This document shows positions 14,216-60,326 of a stretch of DNA of 64,000 nucleotides, piece by piece. A program made the position numbers and the translations under genes. The DNA comes from a virus: the IMG/VR virus record IMGVR_UViG_3300036792_000284, positions 60,280 through 124,279 of that record. One strand, 5' to 3'. The notes beneath the pieces are model-generated. The model made no database searches and was not told the origin of the DNA. It was given only the letters and a program-made list of their open reading frames with translations. The number at the start of each line of letters is the position of its first letter. The first letter of the stretch is position 1.

Positions 14216-15385
14216 TCAGGAGGCCTCCGGGGCCTCCCAGTCCTTGTCGAGCAGCCGGCGGCAGCCGTTCGGCAGCTGGCCGCGGCACATGCCGCCGCCC
14301 TGGTGCACGATGTGGCCCGCCAGGTCGTGCAGGCTGCGCACCTCGCGCCAGGTCGCCCCGTCCAGGTTGGCCGCCTCGGCCGCCGCGTGGGCGAGGTCGT
14401 GCATCGTCGGCTCCCGCGGCTGGCCCTCCACCGCCGAGATGATCCGCAGCTTGAGGTCCTTGGCCACCGGGCGCTCGCGCCAGAGCTGGTCCAGCACCCG
14501 GCTGTAGTCGCCGTCCACCTCGGTCTCGGTGAGCACCTGCAGGCCCCGGAACGCGTCGTCCGGGCCGTCGAGGATCTCCTGTGCCGACTCGGCCGCCCAG
14601 CCGTACACGTCGTCGGGATTGCTGCCCCGGCGGTTGAACCCGCCGGCCGCGTGCTCCACGTCGGTGACCCCCGCCGTGGTGGCAAGCCGGAGCATGTAGC
14701 CGGACAGGATCGTCTGCTTGAGCCCGACCTGGCTGTTGGACACCTCGATGCCGTAGCACCAGGCGTCATCGTCGGTTCCCGTCCCGGTGACGACCTGCTG
14801 CACGGCCGGGACCACGACGCGGAAGCTGGTGTGCTCCCGGTCATGGAAGAACTTGTAGTCCACCAGCGCGCCGTCCGCGGCGGCATGGCCGAACTTCGCC
14901 CGGATCGAGAGCAGGACGATGTCCAGCAGCCGCACGTTGGAGAACGGGACGATCGTGGCCCGGCACTGGCCGACCGCCAGCGGAACCGGGGCGCCCGTTA
15001 CGCTCTCACCCTCGCCCGCGGTGAGCAGCTTCAGCTCGCTCTCGGCCAGCCCCTCGCGCAGCGCCCAGGTCACCAGGTCCGACAGCCGCTCGGGCGGGAT
15101 GAACTCCTGGTACCTCTGGTTGACCTTGGCGGTAGAGCCCAGTTGCCGGGCCGCCTGCCGGGTCATCTGGAACACCTGCCCGTCCGGCAGGGTCACCCAC
15201 ACCGGGGCAGCCTCGGTCATCTCGACCTCAGTCCAGCCCTTGCCGTAGACGACCTCGATGCCCTCGGTCCGCGTCCAGAACGTGGTGCCGTCGATGGGCT
15301 CGGTCTCTGCCAGCCGCCCCCTGGCCTCGCTCACGGTGAGCATGCCGACGGCTCCACCGTCGAACGGCACTGCGGTGTAATCCAC
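14216..15385 (-). CDS. DUF932-like protein
   Basis: IVPFSNVRLLD, GIEVSNSQVG...LRLATTAG pattern. Confidence 0.55.
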   Translation of the reverse strand: MDYTAVPFDGGAVGMLTVSEARGRLAETEPIDGTTFWTRTEGIEVVYGKGWTEVEMTEAAPVWVTLPDGQVFQMTRQAARQLGSTAKVNQRYQEFIPPERLSDLVTWALREGLAESELKLLTAGEGESVTGAPVPLAVGQCRATIVPFSNVRLLDIVLLSIRAKFGHAAADGALVDYKFFHDREHTSFRVVVPAVQQVVTGTGTDDDAWCYGIEVSNSQVGLKQTILSGYMLRLATTAGVTDVEHAAGGFNRRGSNPDDVYGWAAESAQEILDGPDDAFRGLQVLTETEVDGDYSRVLDQLWRERPVAKDLKLRIISAVEGQPREPTMHDLAHAAAEAANLDGATWREVRSLHDLAGHIVHQGGGMCRGQLPNGCRRLLDKDWEAPEAS

Positions 15386-15416
15386 GCCAGCCTCCTCGCG
15401 TAGTCCTGCCTACCTA

Positions 15417-16478
15417 CTACGTCCCGGCGAAAAGGTCGTCGTCGGCCGGGAGCTGCGTCAGCGCCGAAGCGGCCGGCTTGTCGGCCACGGGGATGTTGAG
15501 CTTGGACTCGATCTCCTTGGCCACGTCCGGGTTGGCCACCAGGTGCAGGCGGGTCTTCTCCTTGCCCTGGCCGAGTTGCTCGCCGCCGTAGGTGTACCAG
15601 GACCCGGCCTTGCGGACGACGCCCTGCTCCACGCCGAGGTCGATGATCTCTGCCGCCCGGGAAATGCCCTGGCCGTAGATGATGTCGAACTCGGCGGTCT
15701 TGAAGGGCGGCGACATCTTGTTCTTCACGACCTTGACCCGCGTGCGGTTGCCGTAGGGGTCGCCGCCGTCCTTCAGCGTCTCGATCCGCCGCACGTCCAG
15801 CCGCACCGACGCGTAGAACTTCAGCGCCTTGCCGCCGGTGGTGGTCTCGGGAGAGCCGAACATGATGCCGACCTTCTCCCGCAGCTGGTTGATGAAGATC
15901 ATGGTCGTCTTGGTGGTATTCAACGTGCCGGTGAGCTTGCGCAGCGCCTGGGACATCAGCCGGGCCTGCAGGCCGACGTGGCTGTCCCCCATCTCGCCCT
16001 CGATCTCAGCCCGCGGCACCAGGGCGGCCACCGAGTCGATGACCACGATGGCGATATCCCCGGAGCGGACCAGCATGTCCGCGATCTCCAGGGCCTGCTC
16101 GCCGGTGTCCGGCTGGGAAACCAGCAGGGCGTCGGTATCCACGCCGAGAATGGCCGCATACTCCGGGTCCAGCGCGTGCTCCGCGTCGATGAACGCGGCG
16201 ATGCCGCCGGCCTTCTGGGCTTCCGCCACCCCGTGCAGGGCGAGGGTTGTCTTGCCGCTGGACTCCGGGCCGTAGATTTCGACCACCCGGCCGCGGGGGT
16301 AGCCGCCGATGCCGAGGGCCGCGTTCAGGGTGATCGAGCCCGTGTCGAACACCTCGGTCGGGACGCGCGTCTCGTCGCCCAGGCGCATGAGAGCGCCCTT
16401 GCCGAACTGCCGCTCGATCTGCAGGAGTGTTGCCGCCAGCCCCGCGGGGCTGGGTGACTTGCTGGACACCTTAGGCAC
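15417..16478 (-). CDS. recA: Recombinase RecA
   Basis: [59 protein letters not shown]. Confidence 0.98.
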
Positions 16479-17058
16479 TGAGTGCCTCCTTCTTGAGCGC
16501 CGGCCAGGCGATAGCCGGGTGCGCCGGCTTGCCCTTCTTGGCCGGCACGATGTCGGTCAGCACGGCACGCTGGTCTGCCGGCATCTTCACCAGCGGGAAC
16601 CCAGCCCAGTCCGCGCCCATGGCGGCCAGGGTCAGCGCGTCAGCGGTGTCGTTGCCGGTGATCCCGGCGTCAGGGAACCTCTTGAGGGCGGCGATCAGGC
16701 AGTCCTCTTTGCTCGCGTTAGCCCGGCCGGTGATGAACTTGGCCCGCTGGAACGGGCTAATGACGACATACGGCACCTTGAGCTGCCACAGCCGGTGCGT
16801 GAGCACGCCGAACAGCCCGGCCAGGTCCAGCAGCGACCGGCCTTTAGCGCCCATGGCCAGCCCTTCCACAACCGCGAAGTCGCAGCTGGCAGCGGTGACT
16901 TCCACGTTGTCGAGCAGCCACTGCATGCGCTCGTGCCCGAGCCCGAGCCGTGCCCCCGGGCGCCACCTGTGCAGCTCCACCGCGGAGCCCGGATCGGAAC
17001 TAACCCGGGCTCCGCCGAAAGAGGTCAGCGACTGATCGAGACCTAGGACGGTGGTCAC
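16471..17058 (-). CDS. ruvC: RuvC-like Holliday junction resolvase
   Basis: [33 protein letters not shown]. Confidence 0.8.
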
Positions 17059-18272
17059 TGCAAGTCGTCGAGCCCGTTGAGGATGTCCTTGAACGACTGG
17101 GCACCGGGCGTGGCGCCGTTCGCGCCCACTGCGGCCGGGACCGGAGCCGCCGGGGTGTCGTCGCTGCCGAAGAGGTCGTCATTGGCGACAGGGGCCGGCG
17201 CCGGAGTTGCGACCGCCGCAGCCGGAGTGTCGTCGCTGCCGAAGAGGTCGTCATCGGCGACAGGGGCCGGCGCCGGGGCGGCTGTCCGCTCAGGCGAGGC
17301 GAACTCGTCCAGGTCGTCCAGCGGCCCAGGTCGGTCCGGGTCACCCAGCAGGTCGTCCAGGCCGCCGTCCAGGCTCAGGGCCTGCTCGCCGGTGGACAGG
17401 TAGCCGTTTCCGGTCTTGCTCGGCGCTGGGCTCTTGCCCCAGTTCACAGCCTGGTGCCAGCGCGCCTCCGCGTCGCGGATGTCCCGGTCTATCCAGTCCC
17501 GGGTCGACGTCCGGCCGCAGGCGGCCTGCAGCTGCTCCTCGGTCGGCCGGTTCTCCACGACGCCCCACAGGCCCTGGATGACCGCCTTGACCGCGCGGCC
17601 GGCGTCCGAGTCGTGGCGCCAGGCACTTGGCATCGGCCAAATCTTGTCGATCTTCTGGTAGCCGTTCTCATTGGAGACGCAGATGTCGCACATTTGCAGC
17701 TTGACCGCGGCAGCGTCCTCCAGGTTCAAGAGCGCCGCCATCTGGCGCCGGATGCCGTCCACCTGCTCCCAGGACCACTGGGAGAGAGCCCAGACGAAAA
17801 TCTCGGCGTTGGGCGGGTTCCGCAGCTTCCCGTCAGGCTCGCCCTTCTTCTGGGTCGCGTACCGGATGACCGGGACGGCGTACCGCTGCTGCGGCCTCAG
17901 GTCCCGGGCGTCCGCAATGCCGGCGTCGAGCATCCGCTTGACGCCCGCGCACGCCGGGCAGCCGTCGGCGTCCAGCTCCTGCGTCGCGATGACGTCCGGG
18001 TCCCCGAGGCAGATCGGGGCGCCGATAAAGCCGCCCTCTTCCATGTCAAAGACGAGCCTGACCGCGCCCCTGACCTTCTTCTCCACCTGCAGCGGCTTCC
18101 CGTCATCCGCGAAGACGGGCGCCTTGATGTTGTGCCTGAACTCCATCCAGGCATAGTCCTGGTTCGGAATCCAGAGCCGGTGGCCTTCGTGCCGCTCCAG
18201 CTTCAGTTGCTCGAACCTGTCGACCTGGTTGCCCTCGCGGAACGCGCCGGCAGCGAGCGATACTCTCGGCAT
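17055..18272 (-). CDS. gp32-like single-stranded DNA-binding protein
   Basis: H...ICLG...CPAC Zn site, QRYAVPVI, long acidic tail; lies between recombination and replication genes. Confidence 0.7.
   Translation of the reverse strand: MPRVSLAAGAFREGNQVDRFEQLKLERHEGHRLWIPNQDYAWMEFRHNIKAPVFADDGKPLQVEKKVRGAVRLVFDMEEGGFIGAPICLGDPDVIATQELDADGCPACAGVKRMLDAGIADARDLRPQQRYAVPVIRYATQKKGEPDGKLRNPPNAEIFVWALSQWSWEQVDGIRRQMAALLNLEDAAAVKLQMCDICVSNENGYQKIDKIWPMPSAWRHDSDAGRAVKAVIQGLWGVVENRPTEEQLQAACGRTSTRDWIDRDIRDAEARWHQAVNWGKSPAPSKTGNGYLSTGEQALSLDGGLDDLLGDPDRPGPLDDLDEFASPERTAAPAPAPVADDDLFGSDDTPAAAVATPAPAPVANDDLFGSDDTPAAPVPAAVGANGATPGAQSFKDILNGLDDLQ
17147..17276. repeat. 72-bp-period duplication in the SSB tail
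   Basis: Two copies encoding PAPAPVA(D/N)DDLFGSDDTPAA. Confidence 0.9.
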
Positions 18273-33894: not shown

Positions 33895-34134
33895 CTACGC
33901 CCGGCGGCGCCACCAGCGCCGCGCGACCAGGAGCCTGGTCTGGTCGTCGGTCAGGTCCCGGATGGCGCCGGTCTGCCGCCGGGTGAGGCCCACGATCTGG
34001 GTGGTCTGCTCGGCAGTCTGCCGGTCCACGTGCCGCTTCACGTGGCGGACGCCCAGCCAGACCGACACCGCGATGCCCGGCCAGGACACGATGATGCCCG
34101 AGAGGGTCAGCTCCCAGAAGGTAAAACCGTCCAC
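33895..34134 (-). CDS. Single-TM membrane protein (holin-like possible)
   Basis: N-terminal hydrophobic helix, basic C-terminus. Confidence 0.55.
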   Translation of the reverse strand: MDGFTFWELTLSGIIVSWPGIAVSVWLGVRHVKRHVDRQTAEQTTQIVGLTRRQTGAIRDLTDDQTRLLVARRWWRRRA

Positions 34135-34138
34135 GTAG

Positions 34139-34495
34139 CTAGCTCACCCGCGGAGGCGCAGCGGCGTGCTCGTGCCCCGTCGCATGCTTGTAGAGGTCGG
34201 CCATAATCTGGTGGGCGGCCTCGACGGCCCTCCTGCGCTTGCGGTCCTGCCGGACCAGGTGCAGCGTCCCGCCCGCGGCGATGCACGCCCCGATGTCACT
34301 GGTCACGTTCGTGTAGTTGCCGCCGATAAGCTCGGCCGACTGCGGCACGTGCACCCCGGCCAGCGGCAGGACGATGAGGTAGGCGCCCAGGGCCAGCAGC
34401 CACAGCACGTGCACGCGGCTGGACAGCGCGCGCGGGATGTAGGACAGGGCCTTGTCGAGCCGGCTTTCCGGCTCGGCCAGTTCAGGGGCGCTCAC
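34139..34495 (-). CDS. Two-TM membrane protein
   Basis: VHVLWLLALGAYLIVLPLAGV and IGACIAAGGTL. Confidence 0.6.
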   Translation of the reverse strand: MSAPELAEPESRLDKALSYIPRALSSRVHVLWLLALGAYLIVLPLAGVHVPQSAELIGGNYTNVTSDIGACIAAGGTLHLVRQDRKRRRAVEAAHQIMADLYKHATGHEHAAAPPRVS

Positions 34496-34511
34496 GGCGG
34501 GGCAATCGTCA

Positions 34512-34826
34512 CTAGCACCCGGGCCCGGCCATGTACTCGCGGTGCAGCCGCCCGATAAGTTCGCGGTGCGGCCTCCTCCCGCACAGGTCCGGGTGGTGGT
34601 GCCGGCAGAGCCGGAACGTGCCCCCCGCGGCCGGGAAGCGGCCGATCCGCAGGCACTTCCACGAGTCGTGGCAGGTGTGCCGGAGGTACCAGGTCACCGT
34701 GAACACGGTGAGCCCGACGAAGAACGACCCGGACACCCCCGACCAGAAGTCGTAGGGCACCCAGACGCCGTACGGGGCTCCGTAGTCGCACCCGAAAAAG
34801 TGGACGAGCCAGTGGACGAGGGCCAC
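34512..34826 (-). CDS. Membrane protein with His/Cys-rich tail
   Basis: FWSGVSGSFFVGLTVFTVTWY; HTCH, CRHHH. Confidence 0.55.
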   Translation of the reverse strand: MALVHWLVHFFGCDYGAPYGVWVPYDFWSGVSGSFFVGLTVFTVTWYLRHTCHDSWKCLRIGRFPAAGGTFRLCRHHHPDLCGRRPHRELIGRLHREYMAGPGC

Positions 34827-34839
34827 GGCGTGGCAATCG

Positions 34840-35268
34840 TCACCCGGTGACGATGCCGGCGGCCACGCACAGGCCCGCTGCCGCCGCGGTGATGCCGTAC
34901 GACAGTGCCCACGCCCGCCAGCCGCTGTCCGCCCTTATCACAGCGACGACAGCGCACAGAGCGGCTGCGGCGAGGCCACTCGCAAGAAGAGCCGTGCGTC
35001 CCGCTGCAACAGCGAACGGAAGCGCAACAAGGACGGACCCGACAGTGGTGGCGAGTCCGCAAACTGCAGCCCCGCCGAGACCGTCACCGGGATCGGACTG
35101 GTAGCGGCCGGACGCCATGCCGGGGAACGCCGCCAGGCCGCCGGACAGCCCGGCCAGCCACACGGCCAGGTGGGGCTGGTGCGCGATGTAAAGGGCGAGA
35201 GACAGCCCGATGCCGGTCGTCGTCCCGTCGGCCAGCCCCATGATCGCAGCGGCACGGGGGACCTTCAC
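34840..35268 (-). CDS. VIT1/CCC1-like membrane protein, minimal form
   Basis: IMGLADGTTT, AGLSGGLAAFPGMASGRY, five hydrophobic segments. Confidence 0.65.
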   Translation of the reverse strand: MKVPRAAAIMGLADGTTTGIGLSLALYIAHQPHLAVWLAGLSGGLAAFPGMASGRYQSDPGDGLGGAAVCGLATTVGSVLVALPFAVAAGRTALLASGLAAAALCAVVAVIRADSGWRAWALSYGITAAAAGLCVAAGIVTG

Positions 35269-35546
35269 TCGCCGGCGACGCCGAACACGCCCCGGATGCT
35301 GGCCAGCAGCTTGCTCAGCTCGGCCTCCAGCGCGGCGACCGCCTCGGGCCCGTACTTCGCCACGAGGGCGAGGATGTCGGCCTTGGAGGTGCCGAGAACG
35401 CTGAGGACCTTGTCTTCGGCGGCCTTGGCCTCGGCGAGCAGCGTCCTGGCCTCGGTCAGCGCCGCTCCGTCGATCTTCGCGACCTCGGCTTCCACGTCGT
35501 GGAGAACCTTCTCGACAGCGCCTTCAAGGTTAGTGAACAGGGACAT
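35265..35546 (-). CDS. Amphipathic helical protein
   Basis: 93 aa; GGAGG SD. Confidence 0.65.
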   Translation of the reverse strand: MSLFTNLEGAVEKVLHDVEAEVAKIDGAALTEARTLLAEAKAAEDKVLSVLGTSKADILALVAKYGPEAVAALEAELSKLLASIRGVFGVAGE

Positions 35547-35581
35547 GGGGGCCTCCTTTGCTCCGGCGGGAGAATCGGCCC

Positions 35582-36325
35582 TCAGGCCGCCTGGCCGCCA
35601 GCCGCCAGCACGTCGGCGTCCCAGACCTGCACGCCCGCCCGGTAACTGCCCGCGGCGGTCAGCTCGGCGACCGCCCCGTTCTCGGTGAACGCCTGCCCGG
35701 CGTCCACGTGGTTGGCCGGGCGGGCGTACCGGCCGGGTGCTGCAGGGGCGAAAACCTCCCGGCAGGCGGGCGAGGCAAACCGGCAGGCGCCCGTCCCGCA
35801 GGCCGTCTCGGCGTCACACGTGAACTTGCCCGCCGCGGCCCCGCAGGCGGCCACAGCGCGGGTCACGGCGGCCCGGACGGAGGACCGGACCCCCGCGGCG
35901 TACGCGCGCTCACGCAGGCTCACCGCCTCGCGGGCGATGGCCACCGCGTACCGCTCGTCGTCGCGGAACGCCGCCAGGGCCGCAGCGACCTCCGCCGCGC
36001 GGGCACCGGCCAGCGCCTGCATAACGCTTTCAATGAAAGCGTTCTTGGTGACGTGCCGGCCGGCGGCCCCGGCCCGGCCGGTCTTCGGCGCCCGGCGCGC
36101 GGCGGTGATGTACGGTGATGCGGCGGCGAAGTAATCGCACCCGGCCAGCCGGTGCCCGGCGGCGCGCAGCACCGGCGCGATGGCCGACGTGCGGCTGGCG
36201 GCGAGGATGTCCACCGCCCGCAGGCCCTCGGCGTAGGTCACGCGGGTCCCGCCGACGGCAATTTCCCGCGCTGACAACGATGGCCAGGGGTTCCTGAGGT
36301 TGGAATACTGCAGTTCGTCAGGCAC
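35582..36325 (-). CDS. Hypothetical Ala-rich protein with Cys cluster
   Basis: 247 aa ORF. Confidence 0.55.
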   Translation of the reverse strand: MPDELQYSNLRNPWPSLSAREIAVGGTRVTYAEGLRAVDILAASRTSAIAPVLRAAGHRLAGCDYFAAASPYITAARRAPKTGRAGAAGRHVTKNAFIESVMQALAGARAAEVAAALAAFRDDERYAVAIAREAVSLRERAYAAGVRSSVRAAVTRAVAACGAAAGKFTCDAETACGTGACRFASPACREVFAPAAPGRYARPANHVDAGQAFTENGAVAELTAAGSYRAGVQVWDADVLAAGGQAA

Positions 36326-36329
36326 ACTG

Positions 36330-36680
36330 GACTCGCATGCGATAAACGGCGCGCCAGGTGCGGTGGCGCTTGCATCGACATGACAGGGACCCCGTCCGGT
36401 TCCCCGCTACCAGCCTCACCAGTCGGCAGCCAGTCCGGGCGGGGTCCCTACTAATCTCCGCCCGAAAGGCCCAGCACGGCGCGCTCGCGGGAACACGCAA
36501 GGCCAGCCGTCGACCGCGGAAAGCGGGACTGGCTGGCCTCATTGGTGCCTCCTGCAGCATACGCGGAGGCAGGCCGGGGGCGCCTGTCCTCCGCCGGTAG
36601 ATCGCCGGTGCGGACTGGGCCTCTCGGGCTCTGCCGCTGAGATTAGGCCCTGCGGCAGAGCCCGTCAATATCACTGGGCT
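36330..36680. ncRNA. Candidate structured non-coding RNA or leader
   Basis: About 350 nt with no credible ORF and several long hairpins; no known family recognised. Confidence 0.3.
36626..36663. terminator. Stem-loop downstream of the VirD4 operon
   Basis: Perfect 12-bp arms GGGCTCTGCCGC/GCGGCAGAGCCC. Confidence 0.65.
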
Positions 36681-36681
36681 A

Positions 36682-37296
36682 CTAGGACCTCGTGCGGCTC
36701 GCGCGCTTGGGAGCGGGCTTGCGGACGCGGGTCTTGTCGGCCACGGTCCCGAACCCGTGCACCCCCCTCGCCGGGACCGGCACCCGGGTCCTGGCGGCCA
36801 TGGCGGTGTTCCCGGCAGTGCGCTTGCCGAAGTTCCAGCCGTGCGGGCCACGGCGGCTGCGCAGCCGCGACGGAACGGACCTGACCAGGGCGGCAGCGGC
36901 CTTGGCCCGGCCCGCGAGCCAGACGGCGCTCTGCTTGGTCTTCCTGCGGGCCGTCTCGGCCGCCTGGGACCGCGCCGCCGCGGTCTGGATGCGCTTCTGC
37001 ATCTGGTGGACGATCTCGCGCACGAGCTGCTGCTGCACGCGCAGGTCGCGCGACTCCAGCAGTTGCCGCAGCAGGGACCGGGACTCCGGGCCGAGGACGA
37101 CGCGCTGCCCGGCGGCCATCCGGTCGGTGTCACCGGGCAGGCTGGCCGCGCGGTCGTGCAGGTTGACGGCGGAGTCGATCTGCCGCACGTGGGCGGCCAG
37201 GACGCTGGCCCGCTTCGGCAGGAACCGGGGCTTCAGCAGTTGCTTGACCAGGTGCCGGGCGTGCCTCGGCAGCCGGCGGCGGTGGGGGTGGTCCAT
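36682..37296 (-). CDS. Highly basic hypothetical protein
   Basis: 204 aa, R/K-rich; GAGGAG SD; follows VirD4. Confidence 0.6.
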   Translation of the reverse strand: MDHPHRRRLPRHARHLVKQLLKPRFLPKRASVLAAHVRQIDSAVNLHDRAASLPGDTDRMAAGQRVVLGPESRSLLRQLLESRDLRVQQQLVREIVHQMQKRIQTAAARSQAAETARRKTKQSAVWLAGRAKAAAALVRSVPSRLRSRRGPHGWNFGKRTAGNTAMAARTRVPVPARGVHGFGTVADKTRVRKPAPKRASRTRS

Positions 37297-37300
37297 TCAG

Positions 37301-39007
37301 TCACTCCTCAGTAGTGTCTTGCGGGGCGGCCGGGGGGCCGTCCACGATGGTGACCGGGCGGTAGCCCGGGTGGTTCCACACCGGCCTGATCCTGACCTGC
37401 ACCGGCTTGCAGTTGCGGTGCATCACCAGGGCGTGCATGTCCTGCAGCAGCCGCAGCCGCTCGGGCGGGTAGACGCGCTCCGGGCGCCGGGCCTTGCCGC
37501 GGCCCTCGCGCTCCCAGGTCTCGCGCTCGCCGCAGACGACCGACACGCGCTCCAGCTCTCCCGGGCTGGTCATGCCGCCCGCGAAGACCTTGGTGGAGAA
37601 CAGCGTCATGATGGTCTCCTGGTCCTCCGCGCCGCCCCACGCCGACAGCTGGGACAGCGCCTGCAGGCCCGCGATGACCGTGATGTTGTAGCCGGCGGTG
37701 ACCGCGCACCAGCGCTTGAAGTCGATCCGCGCGGTGGTCGCCGCCTCGTCGGCCGCGATGGTCAGCGGGACCGGCAGCCGGCCGCCGCTCTGCTCGGCCA
37801 GGACCCGGGCCTGCTCCATGAACTCGCTCACGAACGCGGAGAAGAACGGGGTGAGCGAGCCGTAGGCGCGCTCGGAGCCGATCAGGTAGACCGTGCCGGG
37901 CCGCTCGGCGCGCAGGAACGCGGGGATGTCCAGCCCCCCGCCCGGCTCCGGGCAGGCCACGGCGGACAGCACCCGGGAGTTCAGCCAGCCGAGCGCGGCC
38001 TTCGCCGAGGCGACGGCGCTGTTCAGCAGCTCCGGGCCCTCGTCGATCATCGCTTCGAGGGCGTCCGCCCAGCCGGGCGCGGCCTTTTCCCCGCGCAGCG
38101 CCTTGGCCAGCCGCTCGTCATCGGGGCAGCGGACCCAGGCCAGCACGTCCAGCATGCTGGCGCCGGTGAGGGCGGCGGCGTGCAGCACCCACTGCAGCAG
38201 CTCGGTACCGCGCTGCTCGTGCCAGACGTCCTTGCCGGAGCTGTCGCGCGGGGAGGCCTGCATGAAGTCGCCGGCCCGGCGGATCGCCACCTCGGAGTCC
38301 GCGCAGCCGGCGACCGGGGACCACGCGAAGTTGGTGCCGGGCCCGTAGCCGTCGGCGTCGAGCACCAGCACCTCGCCGCGGTCCTCGCGGGCCAGGACGG
38401 TGTGCCGGTACTGGTCGCCGCGCGAGGAGGTGGCGAGCACCGTGCCGGGCGCCTCCAGCACCGCGGTGGAGATCCAGGCCGTCTTAATGGACTGCGGGAC
38501 GCCGGCAACCAGGATGGTCTCCGCGCGGGAGACCGCCACCCGCTGCGCGGGCCGGTGCACCGTGGTGCCCAGCGCGATAGCGGCCTGCTGCGCAGGCAGG
38601 GCCGGGGCCAGCCGGGCCATCTTCTTCACCGCGGCCGACGGGGACAGCGCCCGGCGCACGTCGAACGGGGTGGCCTCGCCCTGGTACTTGCGCCGCCTGC
38701 GGCGGGCCGCCCGGCCGCCGGCGAAGTGCCACGTCAGGCCCTCCGACGCGCGCTGGACGCCGTGCGCCAGGCACGCGCCGACGACGAGCAGGTCCAGGTC
38801 GACCGGAACCTTGGCGGCGACGCAGACGACGGCGCCTGCACCGGAGGCCAGCGCGTAGCCGCCGCCGAACCGGATGAGCCCGCGCCCGGCGGCGACCAGG
38901 TGCTCCGCCAGCACCGGGTCGCGCGGCACCAGCTTGCCCGGCCGCGCCGGGGCGTCGCTCTTGAGGTCGGGGCCGGAGACCACCGTCATCCGGCTCAGCA
39001 CGGTCAC
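37301..39007 (-). CDS. VirD4/TraG-like type IV coupling protein
   Basis: N-terminal hydrophobic segment, GVPQSIKT (degenerate Walker A), VLATSSRGD, VLVLD, WSPVAGC, TVYLIG, IAADEAAT, GLQALSQL..WG, KVFAGG. Confidence 0.85.
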   Translation of the reverse strand: MTVLSRMTVVSGPDLKSDAPARPGKLVPRDPVLAEHLVAAGRGLIRFGGGYALASGAGAVVCVAAKVPVDLDLLVVGACLAHGVQRASEGLTWHFAGGRAARRRRRKYQGEATPFDVRRALSPSAAVKKMARLAPALPAQQAAIALGTTVHRPAQRVAVSRAETILVAGVPQSIKTAWISTAVLEAPGTVLATSSRGDQYRHTVLAREDRGEVLVLDADGYGPGTNFAWSPVAGCADSEVAIRRAGDFMQASPRDSSGKDVWHEQRGTELLQWVLHAAALTGASMLDVLAWVRCPDDERLAKALRGEKAAPGWADALEAMIDEGPELLNSAVASAKAALGWLNSRVLSAVACPEPGGGLDIPAFLRAERPGTVYLIGSERAYGSLTPFFSAFVSEFMEQARVLAEQSGGRLPVPLTIAADEAATTARIDFKRWCAVTAGYNITVIAGLQALSQLSAWGGAEDQETIMTLFSTKVFAGGMTSPGELERVSVVCGERETWEREGRGKARRPERVYPPERLRLLQDMHALVMHRNCKPVQVRIRPVWNHPGYRPVTIVDGPPAAPQDTTEE

Positions 39008-39174
39008 CGGGACCGCCGGGTGCGCTGCGCGCGGTTCCGGCGGTGGGCCCGGCCGCGGTCGTCGTCGGGGACGCCCCAGAACTCCTGGTGCCGCTGAAGG
39101 CGCTGAGCGGCCAGCCGCTGGGCGCGGTTACGGTTGCCTGCCTCGCGCGAGCGCTCTTCGCGGTTGTCTGCCAT
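39004..39174 (-). CDS. Arg-rich 56-aa peptide
   Basis: MADNREERSRE...; GGGAGAGGCAC leader; GTGA overlap with VirD4. Confidence 0.55.
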   Translation of the reverse strand: MADNREERSREAGNRNRAQRLAAQRLQRHQEFWGVPDDDRGRAHRRNRAQRTRRSR

Positions 39175-39238
39175 GTGCCTCTCCCAGACTTGGATGTCAC
39201 TTGACCCAAGTCTAGGGAGTTACTTGACAAGAGTCAAG

Positions 39239-39652
39239 TCAGAGAGTGCTATTTCCTGCCGGCTCGCGGTCCGCCGGGGCAGCGACCGCCTGCAGCAGCA
39301 GTACCTGGGAGGTTCCGACGGTCACCGGGTGCCCGGTCTGCGTCACGTGGTCGCCGGCCCGCGCCCCCTGGTCGCTCAGCGCCTCCGGCGTGGTGTCCTC
39401 CACGACCTCGGAGAACCCGCAGCCCTGGCACTCGGTGACCGAGGGCAGCCGCGTGAACGTCCGCCGCACGTTCTGCTTGCGGGCGCGCCAGGAGACCACC
39501 CAGTCCGGCAGGTGCTCCGGGCAGAACGCCTCGGAGCCGTCCCGGCGGTGGAACCAGCCTGCGTCTTTCGCCCGGATCGAGGCGAACTTGTCGCCCGGGT
39601 GCGTCACGGTGCAGCCGTTGGCGCTGCAGCGGACCGGGGGGACACGGCTCAT
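39239..39652 (-). CDS. Hypothetical Zn-binding protein
   Basis: CSANGC, FCPEH, CQGC. Confidence 0.6.
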   Translation of the reverse strand: MSRVPPVRCSANGCTVTHPGDKFASIRAKDAGWFHRRDGSEAFCPEHLPDWVVSWRARKQNVRRTFTRLPSVTECQGCGFSEVVEDTTPEALSDQGARAGDHVTQTGHPVTVGTSQVLLLQAVAAPADREPAGNSTL

Positions 39653-39969
39653 TTCGGCGGCTTCCGCCGCGGCACGTCGACCATGTGCCACTCCATGACC
39701 GCCGGCTTGCCTTTCACGTCCTCAACCCACCGGCCGTAGGAGTGCTCGGCGCAGTGGTACCACGGGACGCGGCGCTTGATGCCGTGCATCACCGCGATGA
39801 CGGCAGGCTGCCCGCAGGCGTGCTTCATGTCGCCGCCGCGCCAGCGGCACGGCTTGCCGTCCGGGGCCGGGGCCCAGTCGTGCGGGTCGGCGGGGACCGC
39901 CTCCCACCGGGTGCCCGGCTCAGGGTCGTGCGGCGGGGCGGGGCGGGCGAACGCGGTTCCGTTACTCAA
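39649..39969 (-). CDS. Hypothetical protein
   Basis: AGGAGG SD; CRW...HACG...YHCAEH. Confidence 0.6.
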   Translation of the reverse strand: MSNGTAFARPAPPHDPEPGTRWEAVPADPHDWAPAPDGKPCRWRGGDMKHACGQPAVIAVMHGIKRRVPWYHCAEHSYGRWVEDVKGKPAVMEWHMVDVPRRKPPK

Positions 39970-39995
39970 GTTTCCTCCTGTTGCTTGACTGAAGT

Positions 39996-40385
39996 CTAGC
40001 GAGGACGTTTCCCCTCGTCAACAGCGGCCTCCCGGCCGACCACCGCCAGCTTCAGCCGCTCCAGCGGCACGCCGCAGCGCGGGCAGCTCAGCTGCTCCCC
40101 GCCCGGCACGTCGTCCCACCACGCCGTCCCGCCGTGCTCACCGCACCGCTCGCAGTGCAGCAGCGTGAACACCTCGCGCCGGCCGGCCACGCGGCGGGCC
40201 TTCTCCGTCTCCGCGCACGCCTTCGCCGACATGGCGGTCAGGTGGTCGTGCACGCAGGACCAGACCGGCGCGATGTCCGGCTTCCAGCGCAGCGCCCCGC
40301 GGTAGGCTGCCGTGCCGCGCCTGATGTGCACGTAGCCGGCGCGCAGGTCCTTCGGGTCGCGGGCCGGGGGCGGTCCGCCGGTCAC
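39996..40385 (-). CDS. Zn-ribbon protein
   Basis: CERC...CPRC. Confidence 0.6.
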   Translation of the reverse strand: MTGGPPPARDPKDLRAGYVHIRRGTAAYRGALRWKPDIAPVWSCVHDHLTAMSAKACAETEKARRVAGRREVFTLLHCERCGEHGGTAWWDDVPGGEQLSCPRCGVPLERLKLAVVGREAAVDEGKRPR

Positions 40386-40699
40386 GACAGCCGGTCCGGG
40401 AACAAGGCGGACTCGATGGCAGCCCGGCGGCCGAGCACGGCCGGCCAGTTCGGCGCCTGGATGGAGCCGGACGTTCCCCGGGTGAGCATCTGGCCGTTCC
40501 TGGCCGCCTGCTGGTCGCCGCCGGAGTAGTCGATGCGGACGCAGGTCATCCCCCCGCCCGGCAGATGCACCCGGCGCCACTCGTACAGGCCCTGGCTGTC
40601 GCCGTAGGCGAGTTCGCCGGCGGGAGTCTCCGCGAACCACTTGGCGCCGCTGCGCTTGAACACCAGCGGCACCGAGCGGGACAGGATGTCGTCAGCCAC
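40382..40699 (-). CDS. Hypothetical protein
   Basis: GTG start; coupled. Confidence 0.55.
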   Translation of the reverse strand: MADDILSRSVPLVFKRSGAKWFAETPAGELAYGDSQGLYEWRRVHLPGGGMTCVRIDYSGGDQQAARNGQMLTRGTSGSIQAPNWPAVLGRRAAIESALFPDRLS

Positions 40700-40901
40700 G
40701 GGGCACCACGGCGGCCACTGCTGCCTGCAGCAGGTCGATAACGTGCTGCAGGGCGGCCTGGTCCGCGGAGTAGCCGGCGTACCCGGGCCTGCCGGCCAGC
40801 TCCGCCTTGACGCCGGCCAGGTAGCCGCAGACCCCCAGGGGGTGCAGCTCTTCTGGCCGCTTCCGCAGCGGCTCCCTGTCATACCCCGGCCCCATGCCCA
40901 T
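40692..40901 (-). CDS. Hypothetical protein
   Basis: Preceded by conserved leader and promoter. Confidence 0.6.
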   Translation of the reverse strand: MGMGPGYDREPLRKRPEELHPLGVCGYLAGVKAELAGRPGYAGYSADQAALQHVIDLLQAAVAAVVPRG

Positions 40902-40983
40902 GTGTGCCTGCCCTTCGCCTTGAAGACGAGACTGCCCCGCCAGATGAAAGCATAGCGGGGCAGTTTACTTGAGTCAAGTAACT

Positions 40984-41223
40984 CTAGGGGAAGGCGGGGG
41001 CACTGGCCCTGCAGTAGATGCCGTGTATCAGGGCGTCGGCGTCCCCGCCGAGGCGGGTCACCTCCGCCTTCAGCTCGGCGGCCACCGCCAGGGCGCCGGC
41101 GTACGTCAGGCCCGGGGCCTCGGCGGCCTGCTCCAGCACCTCGCCGTACATGCCGGCCTCGTAGGCGGTCAGGCCGGCCAGCGCGGTCAGCAGGGCCTCG
41201 GATGTCTTCAGGCGCGGAGCCAC
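40984..41223 (-). CDS. Hypothetical protein
   Basis: GGGAGG SD, GTG start. Confidence 0.55.
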   Translation of the reverse strand: MAPRLKTSEALLTALAGLTAYEAGMYGEVLEQAAEAPGLTYAGALAVAAELKAEVTRLGGDADALIHGIYCRASAPAFP

Positions 41224-41347
41224 GGGTACCTCCCGGTGTCGTCCGGATCGAGGGGACAGCCGGCCCGGCGGCCAGGGAGGCAAATCAAGCGACTCGATTT
41301 GTTAACCCTCAACCCTGGCCAAAGACAAGCTTTTATACGCCTAACGC

Positions 41348-41617
41348 TCATGATGTTGATCCGTCATCCATCAGCACGTCCCAGGAGCTGGCCCCCGCGG
41401 GCGCCGGCAGGCCTTCCCCGGCCAGCCGCAGTGCCGTCTCCGCGACCAGCCGCAGCGCCGCGGTGAGCGACGCAGAGCCCTGCTGGCCTGCGGAAAGGCG
41501 CATCTCCAGGCCCTCTCTCAGCAACTGGGACATGGGCACGCCCTCAGCCGCCGCGGCCTTGCGGAGACGCTCGTCGGTCTCCGGGTCGAGGTGCAGGAGG
41601 TACCCGCCTTTGCCCAT
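41348..41617 (-). CDS. Ribbon-helix-helix (CopG/Arc-like) DNA-binding protein
   Basis: YLLHLDPETDERLRKAAAAEGVPMSQLLREGLE. Confidence 0.75.
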   Translation of the reverse strand: MGKGGYLLHLDPETDERLRKAAAAEGVPMSQLLREGLEMRLSAGQQGSASLTAALRLVAETALRLAGEGLPAPAGASSWDVLMDDGSTS

Positions 41618-41675
41618 GGCACCAAGCTAGCAGGGGTGCTATATATATGCAAGCTAGCTATCACCCCTATATAAC

Positions 41676-42182
41676 TTATGACTCTGCGTTGCCCGGCCGC
41701 CACGACATGGCGTCAATCCACGGGTAAGTATCAACTTCCGCTTGAGACTCCGGCAAGGTACGCCCGAGGTGATCTGGAATCAGTCCCGGAAGATTCTGCC
41801 CAGATTCTTCACCGCAGAACAAGGCCAGTGTTTCTGGCGGCAGGTACCCGCTCACCTCGACGGTGCGCCCGGCCAGCCCCCCGACGAACTCCGCCGCGTC
41901 CTCGATGTCGCGGGCCTGTTCGTCGGCGAACCGGAAGGAGAACCCGCTTACCTCCACCCTGACAGGTCCGGAGCGCTGCCCGAACTGGGTCATGTGCAAG
42001 ACGGCCCTGGAGGCTGTAACCGGGACCGGGTCCTCAGGCGAGCTGCACACGCAGCCGAAGCGGATCTCCGGAACCATGGCATCAGGCGAGCCGCACGGGC
42101 ACCACACGGCGCCGACATGGCCCGGAGGGACAGTCATCCGGTTGCCGCAGGCGGGGCAGGCGTAGTCGGCGGTGGGGGCCAC
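41676..42182 (-). CDS. Hypothetical protein with N-terminal Zn ribbon
   Basis: CPACG...WCPCG. Confidence 0.55.
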   Translation of the reverse strand: MAPTADYACPACGNRMTVPPGHVGAVWCPCGSPDAMVPEIRFGCVCSSPEDPVPVTASRAVLHMTQFGQRSGPVRVEVSGFSFRFADEQARDIEDAAEFVGGLAGRTVEVSGYLPPETLALFCGEESGQNLPGLIPDHLGRTLPESQAEVDTYPWIDAMSWRPGNAES

Positions 42183-60265: not shown

Positions 60266-60326
60266 GGGCCTGCCCTTCCTCGGTTACAGGCCAAGCGTAC
60301 CTGTTGGCTTGACTCGGGTCAAGCAC

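Follow-up and report, generated by a model that had tools for sequence, protein, structure and literature searches.

A VirD4/TraG/TrwB-type coupling protein in a conserved gene unit of large soil phages

Introduction

Type IV coupling proteins (T4CPs) by definition link relaxase-bound DNA to a type IV secretion channel. Among the described members of the VirD4/TraG/TrwB family, TrwB of plasmid R388 (PDB 1E9R/1E9S/1GKI) has an N-terminal membrane segment, a RecA-like domain with an inserted all-alpha domain, a Walker B motif and the motif GLQxxSQL, and Cagbeta/VirD4 of Helicobacter pylori (PDB 8DOL, with the small helical regulator CagZ) is of the same family and fold. Here, we examined a protein of 568 amino acids (aa) that is nearly certainly a coupling protein of this family and is encoded in a 64,000-nucleotide stretch of viral DNA (positions 60,280 to 124,279 of IMG/VR record IMGVR_UViG_3300036792_000284), referred to below as the window. 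The gene, on the minus strand at 37301..39007, lies between a short Arg-rich open reading frame (ORF) and the gene for a basic 204-aa protein, p204. The protein is like TrwB in each of the features listed above, the membrane segment being a predicted one, and shares family and fold with Cagbeta. It differs from both in that relaxase, VirB4 and channel genes do not accompany it, the Walker A motif lacks the Gly before the Lys and the carrier is an apparently virulent phage. It adjoins a helical protein of about 200 aa, as Cagbeta does with CagZ, but this is an analogy only, as no fold match was detected for p204 in the PDB.

Conjugation-type genes have been noticed in phages before, as Bacillus phage 0305phi8-36 carries a 'DNA translocation operon' in which orf200 encodes a MobC-like relaxase and orf201 a VirD4-like/AAA_10 ATPase (Pathria et al. 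2012, PMC3357382). That phage is likewise a large lytic one with a conjugation-type ATPase that was proposed to move DNA (PMC3357382). The orf201 product is of the AAA_10 type, has no transmembrane segment and is encoded beside relaxase-like and VirB6-like genes (PMC3357382). The protein described here, in contrast, is a T4CP of the TraG-D_C/TrwB type with a predicted membrane hairpin and no relaxase, and AAA_10 is absent from the five genomes searched. A different precedent is TraB, an FtsK/SpoIIIE-like protein of Streptomyces plasmids and actinomycete integrative and conjugative elements (AICEs), a single membrane-anchored ring ATPase that transfers DNA from hypha to hypha and inside hyphae with no type IV secretion system (T4SS) (PMC3429521). 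TraB serves as the working model for a lone translocase in this host group. The phage T4CP comes from another branch of the superfamily, FtsK_SpoIIIE is absent from the phages, and neither clt-like repeats nor a winged helix-turn-helix recognition domain was identified.

In the literature searched, there was no report of a TraG/TrwB-type T4CP in actinophages. We describe an intact T4CP that is a conserved, apparently early gene across a clade of abundant soil phages with no relaxase or T4SS channel.

Identification of the coupling protein

Two Pfam domains were found in the 568-aa protein above their cut-offs, TraG-D_C (PF12696; 7.5e-13, 48.9 bits, cut-off 22) and TrwB_AAD_bind (PF10412; 21.7 bits, cut-off 20.5). 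The NCBIfam VirD4-like CD1115 model gave a partial match (1.2e-9) that was under the equivalog cut-off. A profile built from 26 homologues matched TrwB of R388 (2.9e-13), in an alignment spanning the all-alpha domain, Walker B and the GLQxxSQL motif, and also matched Cagbeta. The AlphaFold2 model, made with 112 homologues, had a mean pLDDT of 90.4 and a pTM of 0.83. When this model was used as the query, Foldseek returned Cagbeta (8e-18) and TrwB (2e-16, target-normalised TM-score 0.70), with HerA-type translocases next, and helices in the region 238-351 aligned to the all-alpha domain of TrwB. An earlier reading of the DNA letters, made without database searches (the sequence-only reading), had called the protein VirD4/TraG-like, and the domain matches, the profile match and the TrwB/Cagbeta fold bear this out.

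An N-terminal helical hairpin (residues 32-96; 38720..38914, minus strand) is predicted to be the membrane anchor, from hydropathy and the secondary structure of the AlphaFold2 model. Its two helices (32-65 and 70-96) cover the sole hydrophobic stretch of the protein (51-84), which has a Kyte-Doolittle maximum of 1.88, and are followed by the basic sequence RAARRRRRK.

Walker B (LTIAADEAAT) is intact, with Asp420-Glu421 at 37745..37750 on the minus strand, as the sequence-only reading had noted. The same reading had remarked that Walker A reads GVPQSIKT, and this was found at residues 169-176 (38480..38503, minus strand), between a strand (164-168) and a helix (175-185) in the model. The Lys-Thr pair and the strand-loop-helix placement are kept, and Ile replaces the Gly before the Lys. 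The variant is not an oddity of this protein but the norm for its lineage. In most of the 112 homologues, the motif follows the pattern [AG][PV]P[QR][ST]-hydrophobic-K-[TS]; K175, D420, E421 and Q453 do not vary at all, and K175 is always followed by T or S.

In total, 339 homologues of the T4CP were found. At least 55 proteins shared 50% identity or more with it, several of them encoded on contigs of 140-152 kb. In a tree of the homologues (built with FastTree, with midpoint rooting for drawing only), the 52 proteins nearest to that of the window formed clade A, with a support of 100, nested among more distant forms. Canonical loops ending in GK[ST] were found on basal branches, and the glycine-less loop also marks a separate clade from cellular integrative elements. 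From this distribution, the Walker A variant is old and maintained, having persisted through a long divergence. Pseudogenisation or recent inactivation as an explanation for it was ruled out by the conservation across the lineage. At the level of sequence, the T4CP was shown to be structurally complete and under purifying selection.

About half of the clade-A T4CPs end in TEE-COOH, and the tail of the protein in the window, which ends in TTEE, is acidic and lineage-specific. The cellular modules described below have PW[NST] in its place. Lineage-specific tail motifs of this kind would be expected for tails that bind a partner, and the TEE tail recalls the TraM-binding tail of TraD, as an analogy only. 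In the other lineages, the terminal motifs were SW(H/Q) in clade B, the second viral lineage described below, and PW[NST]-COOH in the integrative-element clade.

Conservation in related phages

The source contig is a sequence of 124,279 bp from an uncultured virus, of which the window is the right-hand 64 kb. CheckV completeness was 82%, leaving approximately 27 kb of the phage genome unseen. Among sequencing runs, the stretch turned up in the probable source alone, a soil metagenome, and no RNA data set containing it was listed. The contig is a real tailed phage. Its other half encodes a terminase large subunit, portal, head maturation protease, major head protein and tail fibre, as well as a 2074-aa tape-measure-like protein with a transglycosylase domain. 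The replication genes (SNF2-like helicase, DnaB, family A polymerase and clamp loader) lie inside the window, which has a G+C content of about 70% and essentially all of its codon-biased ORFs on the minus strand. The gene order on this single strand runs from early to replication to virion genes, and the phage encodes its own replisome.

A scan of IMG/VR revealed eleven viral loci with relatives of the coupling protein. Four of them (L002-L005) belong to genomes with sizes of 146-152 kb and a completeness of 97-100% (G001-G004, corresponding to L056-L059), one with direct terminal repeats, and these four were used as the relatives for comparison. Their neighbourhoods are syntenic with the window gene for gene, in the order small upstream genes, leader ORF, T4CP, p204, p247, p93 and, in some, p142, on to the SNF2 helicase. 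The T4CP is intact in all four, with 55-65% identity to the protein in the window, and its rate of divergence resembles that of the helicase. The contigs of the clade are permuted relative to one another. A sixth member was found via p247, on a contig that stops short of the T4CP position. The clade apparently consists of virulent soil phages of about 150 kb that infect high-GC actinobacteria.

Search for other conjugation genes

Six-frame Pfam searches were made of the contig and the four near-complete relatives, with most controls behaving as expected, and the conclusions about missing genes rest on eight named Pfam models, a relaxase of an unmodelled family being outside their reach. In these five genomes, there was no match to CagE_TrbE_VirB (PF03135) or AAA_10 (PF12846), to Relaxase (PF03432) or TrwC (PF08751), to FtsK_SpoIIIE, or to ParA-type AAA_31, Phage_integrase or Resolvase. 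The earlier statement that the window holds no relaxase or VirB4 could therefore be extended to the whole 124-kb contig and four relatives. A full T4SS or relaxase nearby, which would point to the boundary of an integrative and conjugative element (ICE), was searched for and found in none of the five, which rules out a plain ICE boundary. By structure, the 568-aa protein belongs to the coupling-protein family, but it has no linked relaxase or VirB4.

One of the three roles suggested in the sequence-only reading was that of a phage-plasmid with transfer functions, and this was not supported: matches to ParA, tyrosine integrase, serine recombinase, relaxase, VirB4 and FtsK were absent throughout the five genomes. 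The pattern argues that the five genomes are virulent phages rather than phage-plasmids or ICEs. That the T4CP serves a transfer apparatus encoded elsewhere on such an element is very improbable. The contig is 82% complete, and each of the four near-complete relatives has weak DUF2637-like matches (15-25 bits), which lie upstream of the T4CP, relative to the direction of transcription, at a distance of 40-54 kb and in the region equivalent to the missing 27 kb. Against this, the relatives, at 97-100% completeness, were searched whole and no conjugation, partition or integration model matched, and the single-strand gene order and dedicated replisome are those of a phage. The DUF2637-like genes were also considered as partners of the T4CP and rejected, the matches being weak, distant and unrelated by BLAST.

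Homologues in plasmids, integrative elements and a second viral lineage

The nearest cellular homologues of the phage T4CP, with approximately 30% identity over about 70% of the protein, were found in actinobacterial modules made up of a DUF2637 protein, a T4CP and a protein of about 200 aa. A tblastn search identified 542 actinobacterial plasmid records whose homologues shared about 30% identity, the leading genera being Streptomyces, Rhodococcus and Arthrobacter. From Streptomyces, two plasmids with sizes of 34-35 kb were inspected (accession numbers NZ_CP108823.1, L060, and NZ_CP043961.1, L066). In both, genes for a DUF2637 membrane protein, the T4CP and a protein of about 200 aa were found in that order, with a MobF relaxase a few genes away and no VirB4 annotated. 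At 40 further loci, from metagenome-assembled genomes that are mostly of Streptosporangiaceae or other actinobacteria, the T4CP was flanked by homologues of the partners in the plasmid trio. The surrounding genes encode a GntR or XRE regulator, a Prim-Pol and a tyrosine integrase, the context of AICE-like islands, and no relaxase or VirB4 was present among the conserved neighbours scanned there. The trio, consisting of a DUF2637-like protein, the T4CP and a Cys/Trp-rich protein of about 200 aa, was seen at L016-L053, at L012 and in the two plasmids.

A VirB4-type gene was not found beside the trio in either the AICE-like islands or the two plasmids, and the trio may be a transfer module that operates without a T4SS. 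This branch of T4CPs in actinobacteria may then work in a TraB-like manner, without a classical T4SS. The copies in the AICE-like islands, which were the ones compared, have the same type of P-loop as the phage protein ([AS]PPR[TM]hKT, where h is hydrophobic). The phages differ from the cellular modules in having a 56-aa leader ORF and p204 where the flanking partners sit, and in having no linked relaxase, Prim-Pol or integrase.

A second viral lineage (clade B), with 37-47% identity, encodes the T4CP together with a TcpA/FtsK-like ATPase of about 640 aa and a clear DUF2637 protein. These genes appear to amount to a small conjugation-like set. The clade-B loci are L007 (3463-10999), L011, L009 (9929-18030) and L010, and the ATPase matched PDB 6O1W (2.6e-6). 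At least one clade-B contig, L007, is a phage because its source record matches a phage portal family. Phages have thus recruited this T4CP branch at least once, and the second lineage keeps further DNA-transfer genes with it. When the protein from the window and one protein from clade B were used as queries, no match was found among the cultured phages of INPHARED by megablast or tblastn, and no PHROG family matched the T4CP.

Structure of the gene unit and its small proteins

The three-gene unit that the sequence-only reading had described is present on the minus strand as reported, consisting of an Arg-rich ORF, the T4CP gene and the gene for the basic 204-aa protein. The 56-aa Arg-rich leader ORF (39004..39174; isoelectric point (pI) 11.95) ends in a TGA stop that overlaps the GTG start of the T4CP in the sequence GTGA, which indicates translational coupling of the two. 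The p204 gene (36682..37296; pI 12.0, with 46 Arg and Lys residues) starts 4 nucleotides (nt) past the T4CP stop.

The description of the two small proteins as basic partners holds for the window, where both are basic, and for p204, a homologue of which was found in all four relatives. It does not hold throughout for the leader ORF. While kept in L002, L003 and L005, this has shrunk to 10 codons in L004, with the same leader, ATG and stop/start overlap. The constant feature of this ORF thus appears to be the translational coupling to the GTG start, rather than its protein product.

The p204 family is small: one search gave 33 proteins and another, of 1.84 billion proteins, gave 32 representative clusters, with lengths of 104-250 aa throughout. 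The proteins share a helical core at residues ~30-110 that includes the sequence GPETRSLLRQLLxSRDLRVQQQLVREI. A single 65-residue helix (85-149) is followed by a disordered Arg-rich tail with RTR-like repeats. No match to p204 was found in Pfam, PHROG or PADLOC, there was no usable match in the ESM Atlas, and Foldseek against the PDB returned nothing at E <= 0.001. The one NCBIfam match, to MmpA (0.0044, 15.7 bits), was far under the cut-off. By hhalign, p204 was unrelated to the partner of about 200 aa in the cellular modules and to the ORF that follows the clade-B T4CP. From its sequence features, p204 appears to be a clade-restricted orphan and a basic coiled-coil, and is probably an oligomeric, nucleic-acid-binding partner. 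Complex prediction with T4CP residues 95-568 and p204 residues 1-155, run without controls, gave scores of 0.00, 0.55 and 0.00.

A GC-rich hairpin with a 12-13-bp stem (36626..36663, minus strand; -34.3 kcal/mol, z -3.5) begins 19 nt past the p204 stop, and was found at the matching place in all four relatives. In each of the five genomes, the p204 stop is followed by TGATATTGACG, then a 12-16-bp hairpin with a genome-specific stem, then GAGCCCGAGAGGCCCAGTCCGCACCCGGCG. The variation of the stems between conserved flanks speaks for a structural function, in termination or at the 3' end, and the hairpin probably terminates the unit or forms its 3' end. The conservation of the flanks suggests something more than a simple terminator.

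Promoter and early regulon

A sigma-70-type promoter, TTGACT-17-TAGACT (39209..39237, minus strand; 9/12 matches), precedes the unit. Three promoter-like sites were found in the 8-kb region, against 0.2 expected. The promoter is kept upstream of the unit in all four relatives, with the palindrome over the -35 region and a TAGACT or TAAACT -10 box. The -35 hexamer is covered by a perfect CTTGAC-N4-GTCAAG palindrome (39223..39238), and a scan of the sequence revealed a second copy with one mismatch over the -10 box and +1 (39200..39215). This copy lies inside an inverted repeat, AGACTTGG-N12-CCAAGTCT (39186..39213, minus strand), which is a candidate 5' leader hairpin (-17.7 kcal/mol, z -2.7). 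At this position, the relatives have ACTCGG...CCGAGT, a difference of one compensated pair. The term double operator, used for this promoter in the sequence-only reading, fairly describes a perfect and a one-mismatch copy, but the arrangement is equally compatible with a 5' RNA hairpin.

With one mismatch or fewer allowed, there are 25 CTTGAC-N4-GTCAAG sites in the window, against 0.07 expected, and all except one lie within 39200-62462. At least 13 of them form promoters of the form TTGACN-17/18-TAnnnT, followed by a common leader. The promoter of the T4CP unit has the features of this series (the palindrome over a TTGACN -35, TAnnnT 17-18 nt downstream on the same strand and the conserved leader); it is the last of about 24 early promoters that carry the palindrome, its perfect copy being the most downstream member of the family, and it is among the few with a second palindrome copy. 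The proposal that the coupling protein is expressed as an early gene is supported at the level of the promoter class, but this promoter belongs to an early regulon that spans the genome and is not specific to this unit. By its promoter class and position, the T4CP would be an early gene.

Possible functions

We propose that the T4CP is a membrane-anchored, T4SS-independent DNA translocase or dock, at a probability of roughly 0.4. In this model, the early regulon's last promoter would drive early expression of the unit. The T4CP would assemble into an NTP-driven ring, anchored in the membrane, and would dock or move DNA with no type IV secretion channel. In analogy to TraM and TraD, p204 would bind nucleic acid and act as its adaptor. 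The DNA handled would most likely be that of the phage itself, moved across the membrane or a hyphal cross-wall, or pulled in at genome entry. The TraB precedent indicates that a lone ring ATPase is able to move DNA in such hosts (PMC3429521). Of the three roles put forward in the sequence-only reading, the one that fits the evidence best is a translocase that acts on phage DNA, and it is plausible. The more specific claim that virulent actinophages move DNA using a T4SS-independent T4CP with p204 as adaptor, either for virion-free spread between compartments or cells or for motor-completed entry, is decidedly improbable as it stands.

Several observations weigh against a translocase or dock. 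The Gly before the Walker A Lys is replaced by Ile, Leu or Val, so that nucleoside triphosphatase (NTPase) activity is not assured, and the membrane anchor is moderately hydrophobic, with a model confidence of 70-81 in that part. The two partners that usually flank the T4CP are missing beside it in the clade represented by the window; p204 is unrelated to the partner of about 200 aa in plasmids and integrative elements, and BLAST detected no similarity between the DUF2637-like genes of the relatives and the DUF2637 proteins that are linked to T4CPs. No origin of transfer (oriT), clt or relaxase is known for the phage. In the laboratory, deletion of the DNA translocation operon of 0305phi8-36 caused no growth defect (PMC3357382).

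The phage T4CP might instead interfere with DNA transfer. Whether active as an ATPase or not, it would titrate or block the transfer of resident plasmids or integrative elements, or exclude superinfecting DNA, and so protect the resources of the infected cell or stop the escape of competing elements. Such hosts commonly carry homologous T4CP modules (the 542 plasmid records and 40 metagenome-assembled loci), and a phage T4CP that lacks the usual neighbours could join them in mixed complexes or build competing ones. The gene also lies in the early, host-takeover part of the genome, and its P-loop is non-canonical. However, with about 30% identity to the cellular T4CPs and a different tail motif, co-assembly or mimicry of a partner is unlikely. 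The conservation of the catalytic residues is that of an active enzyme, the P-loop variant is common to a cellular clade and not phage-specific, and there were no PADLOC or PHROG matches. For the dominant-negative decoy, one of the three roles in the sequence-only reading, the argument from a degenerate Walker A fails, as the P-loop type is lineage-wide and the Lys, Asp-Glu and Gln453 are invariant. A DNA-handling role is favoured over a decoy because the relatives are all found in DNA-transfer contexts, including a second phage lineage with three such genes, and we consider interference unlikely.

Equally doubtful is a role that does not involve moving DNA, in which the ring ATPase has been repurposed for the movement or unfolding of proteins, or acts at the membrane as a scaffold or anchor, of the replicating genome for instance, with no translocation. 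Canonical T4CPs also recruit protein substrates, which lends this some support, and the unit lies beside replication genes and small membrane proteins; the altered P-loop could mean that hydrolysis is slow or regulated. The same DNA-transfer contexts of the closest relatives speak against it, there is no protease or secretion partner in the unit, and p204 is strongly basic, of the nucleic-acid-binding type.

If the T4CP motor acts on phage DNA, it would bear on how large phages enter and spread in mycelial hosts, and virion-free spread or motor-driven entry, if true, would place a conjugation-like step in the life cycle of a lytic phage. If instead it acts against plasmids, it would represent a new kind of conflict between phages and mobile elements. 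The three-gene unit is small, well delimited and directly testable.

Neighbouring genes and other features

The unit adjoins replication genes and several small membrane proteins. A search of 34000-42000 against Rfam gave nothing close to a gathering score, and this includes a second strong RNA structure at 36380-36465 (minus strand; -46.3 kcal/mol, z -3.4), in the gap of 356 nt that precedes p247. The same gap contains, at about 36551, a short ORF preceded by a tag-like leader (GGAGGCACCA-ATG). The p247 protein itself (35582-36325) had no family match and no match in the ESM Atlas. A 142-aa protein encoded at 34840-35268 (minus strand) has several hydrophobic segments and matches VIT1 and holin weakly. 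Three of the relatives encode it at 84-87% identity, far above the conservation of its neighbours, and the fourth lacks it. In L003, the SNF2-like helicase gene (14540-17317) matches that of the window as two pieces with approximately 0.9 kb between them, which suggests an insertion, such as an intein or a homing-endonuclease gene.

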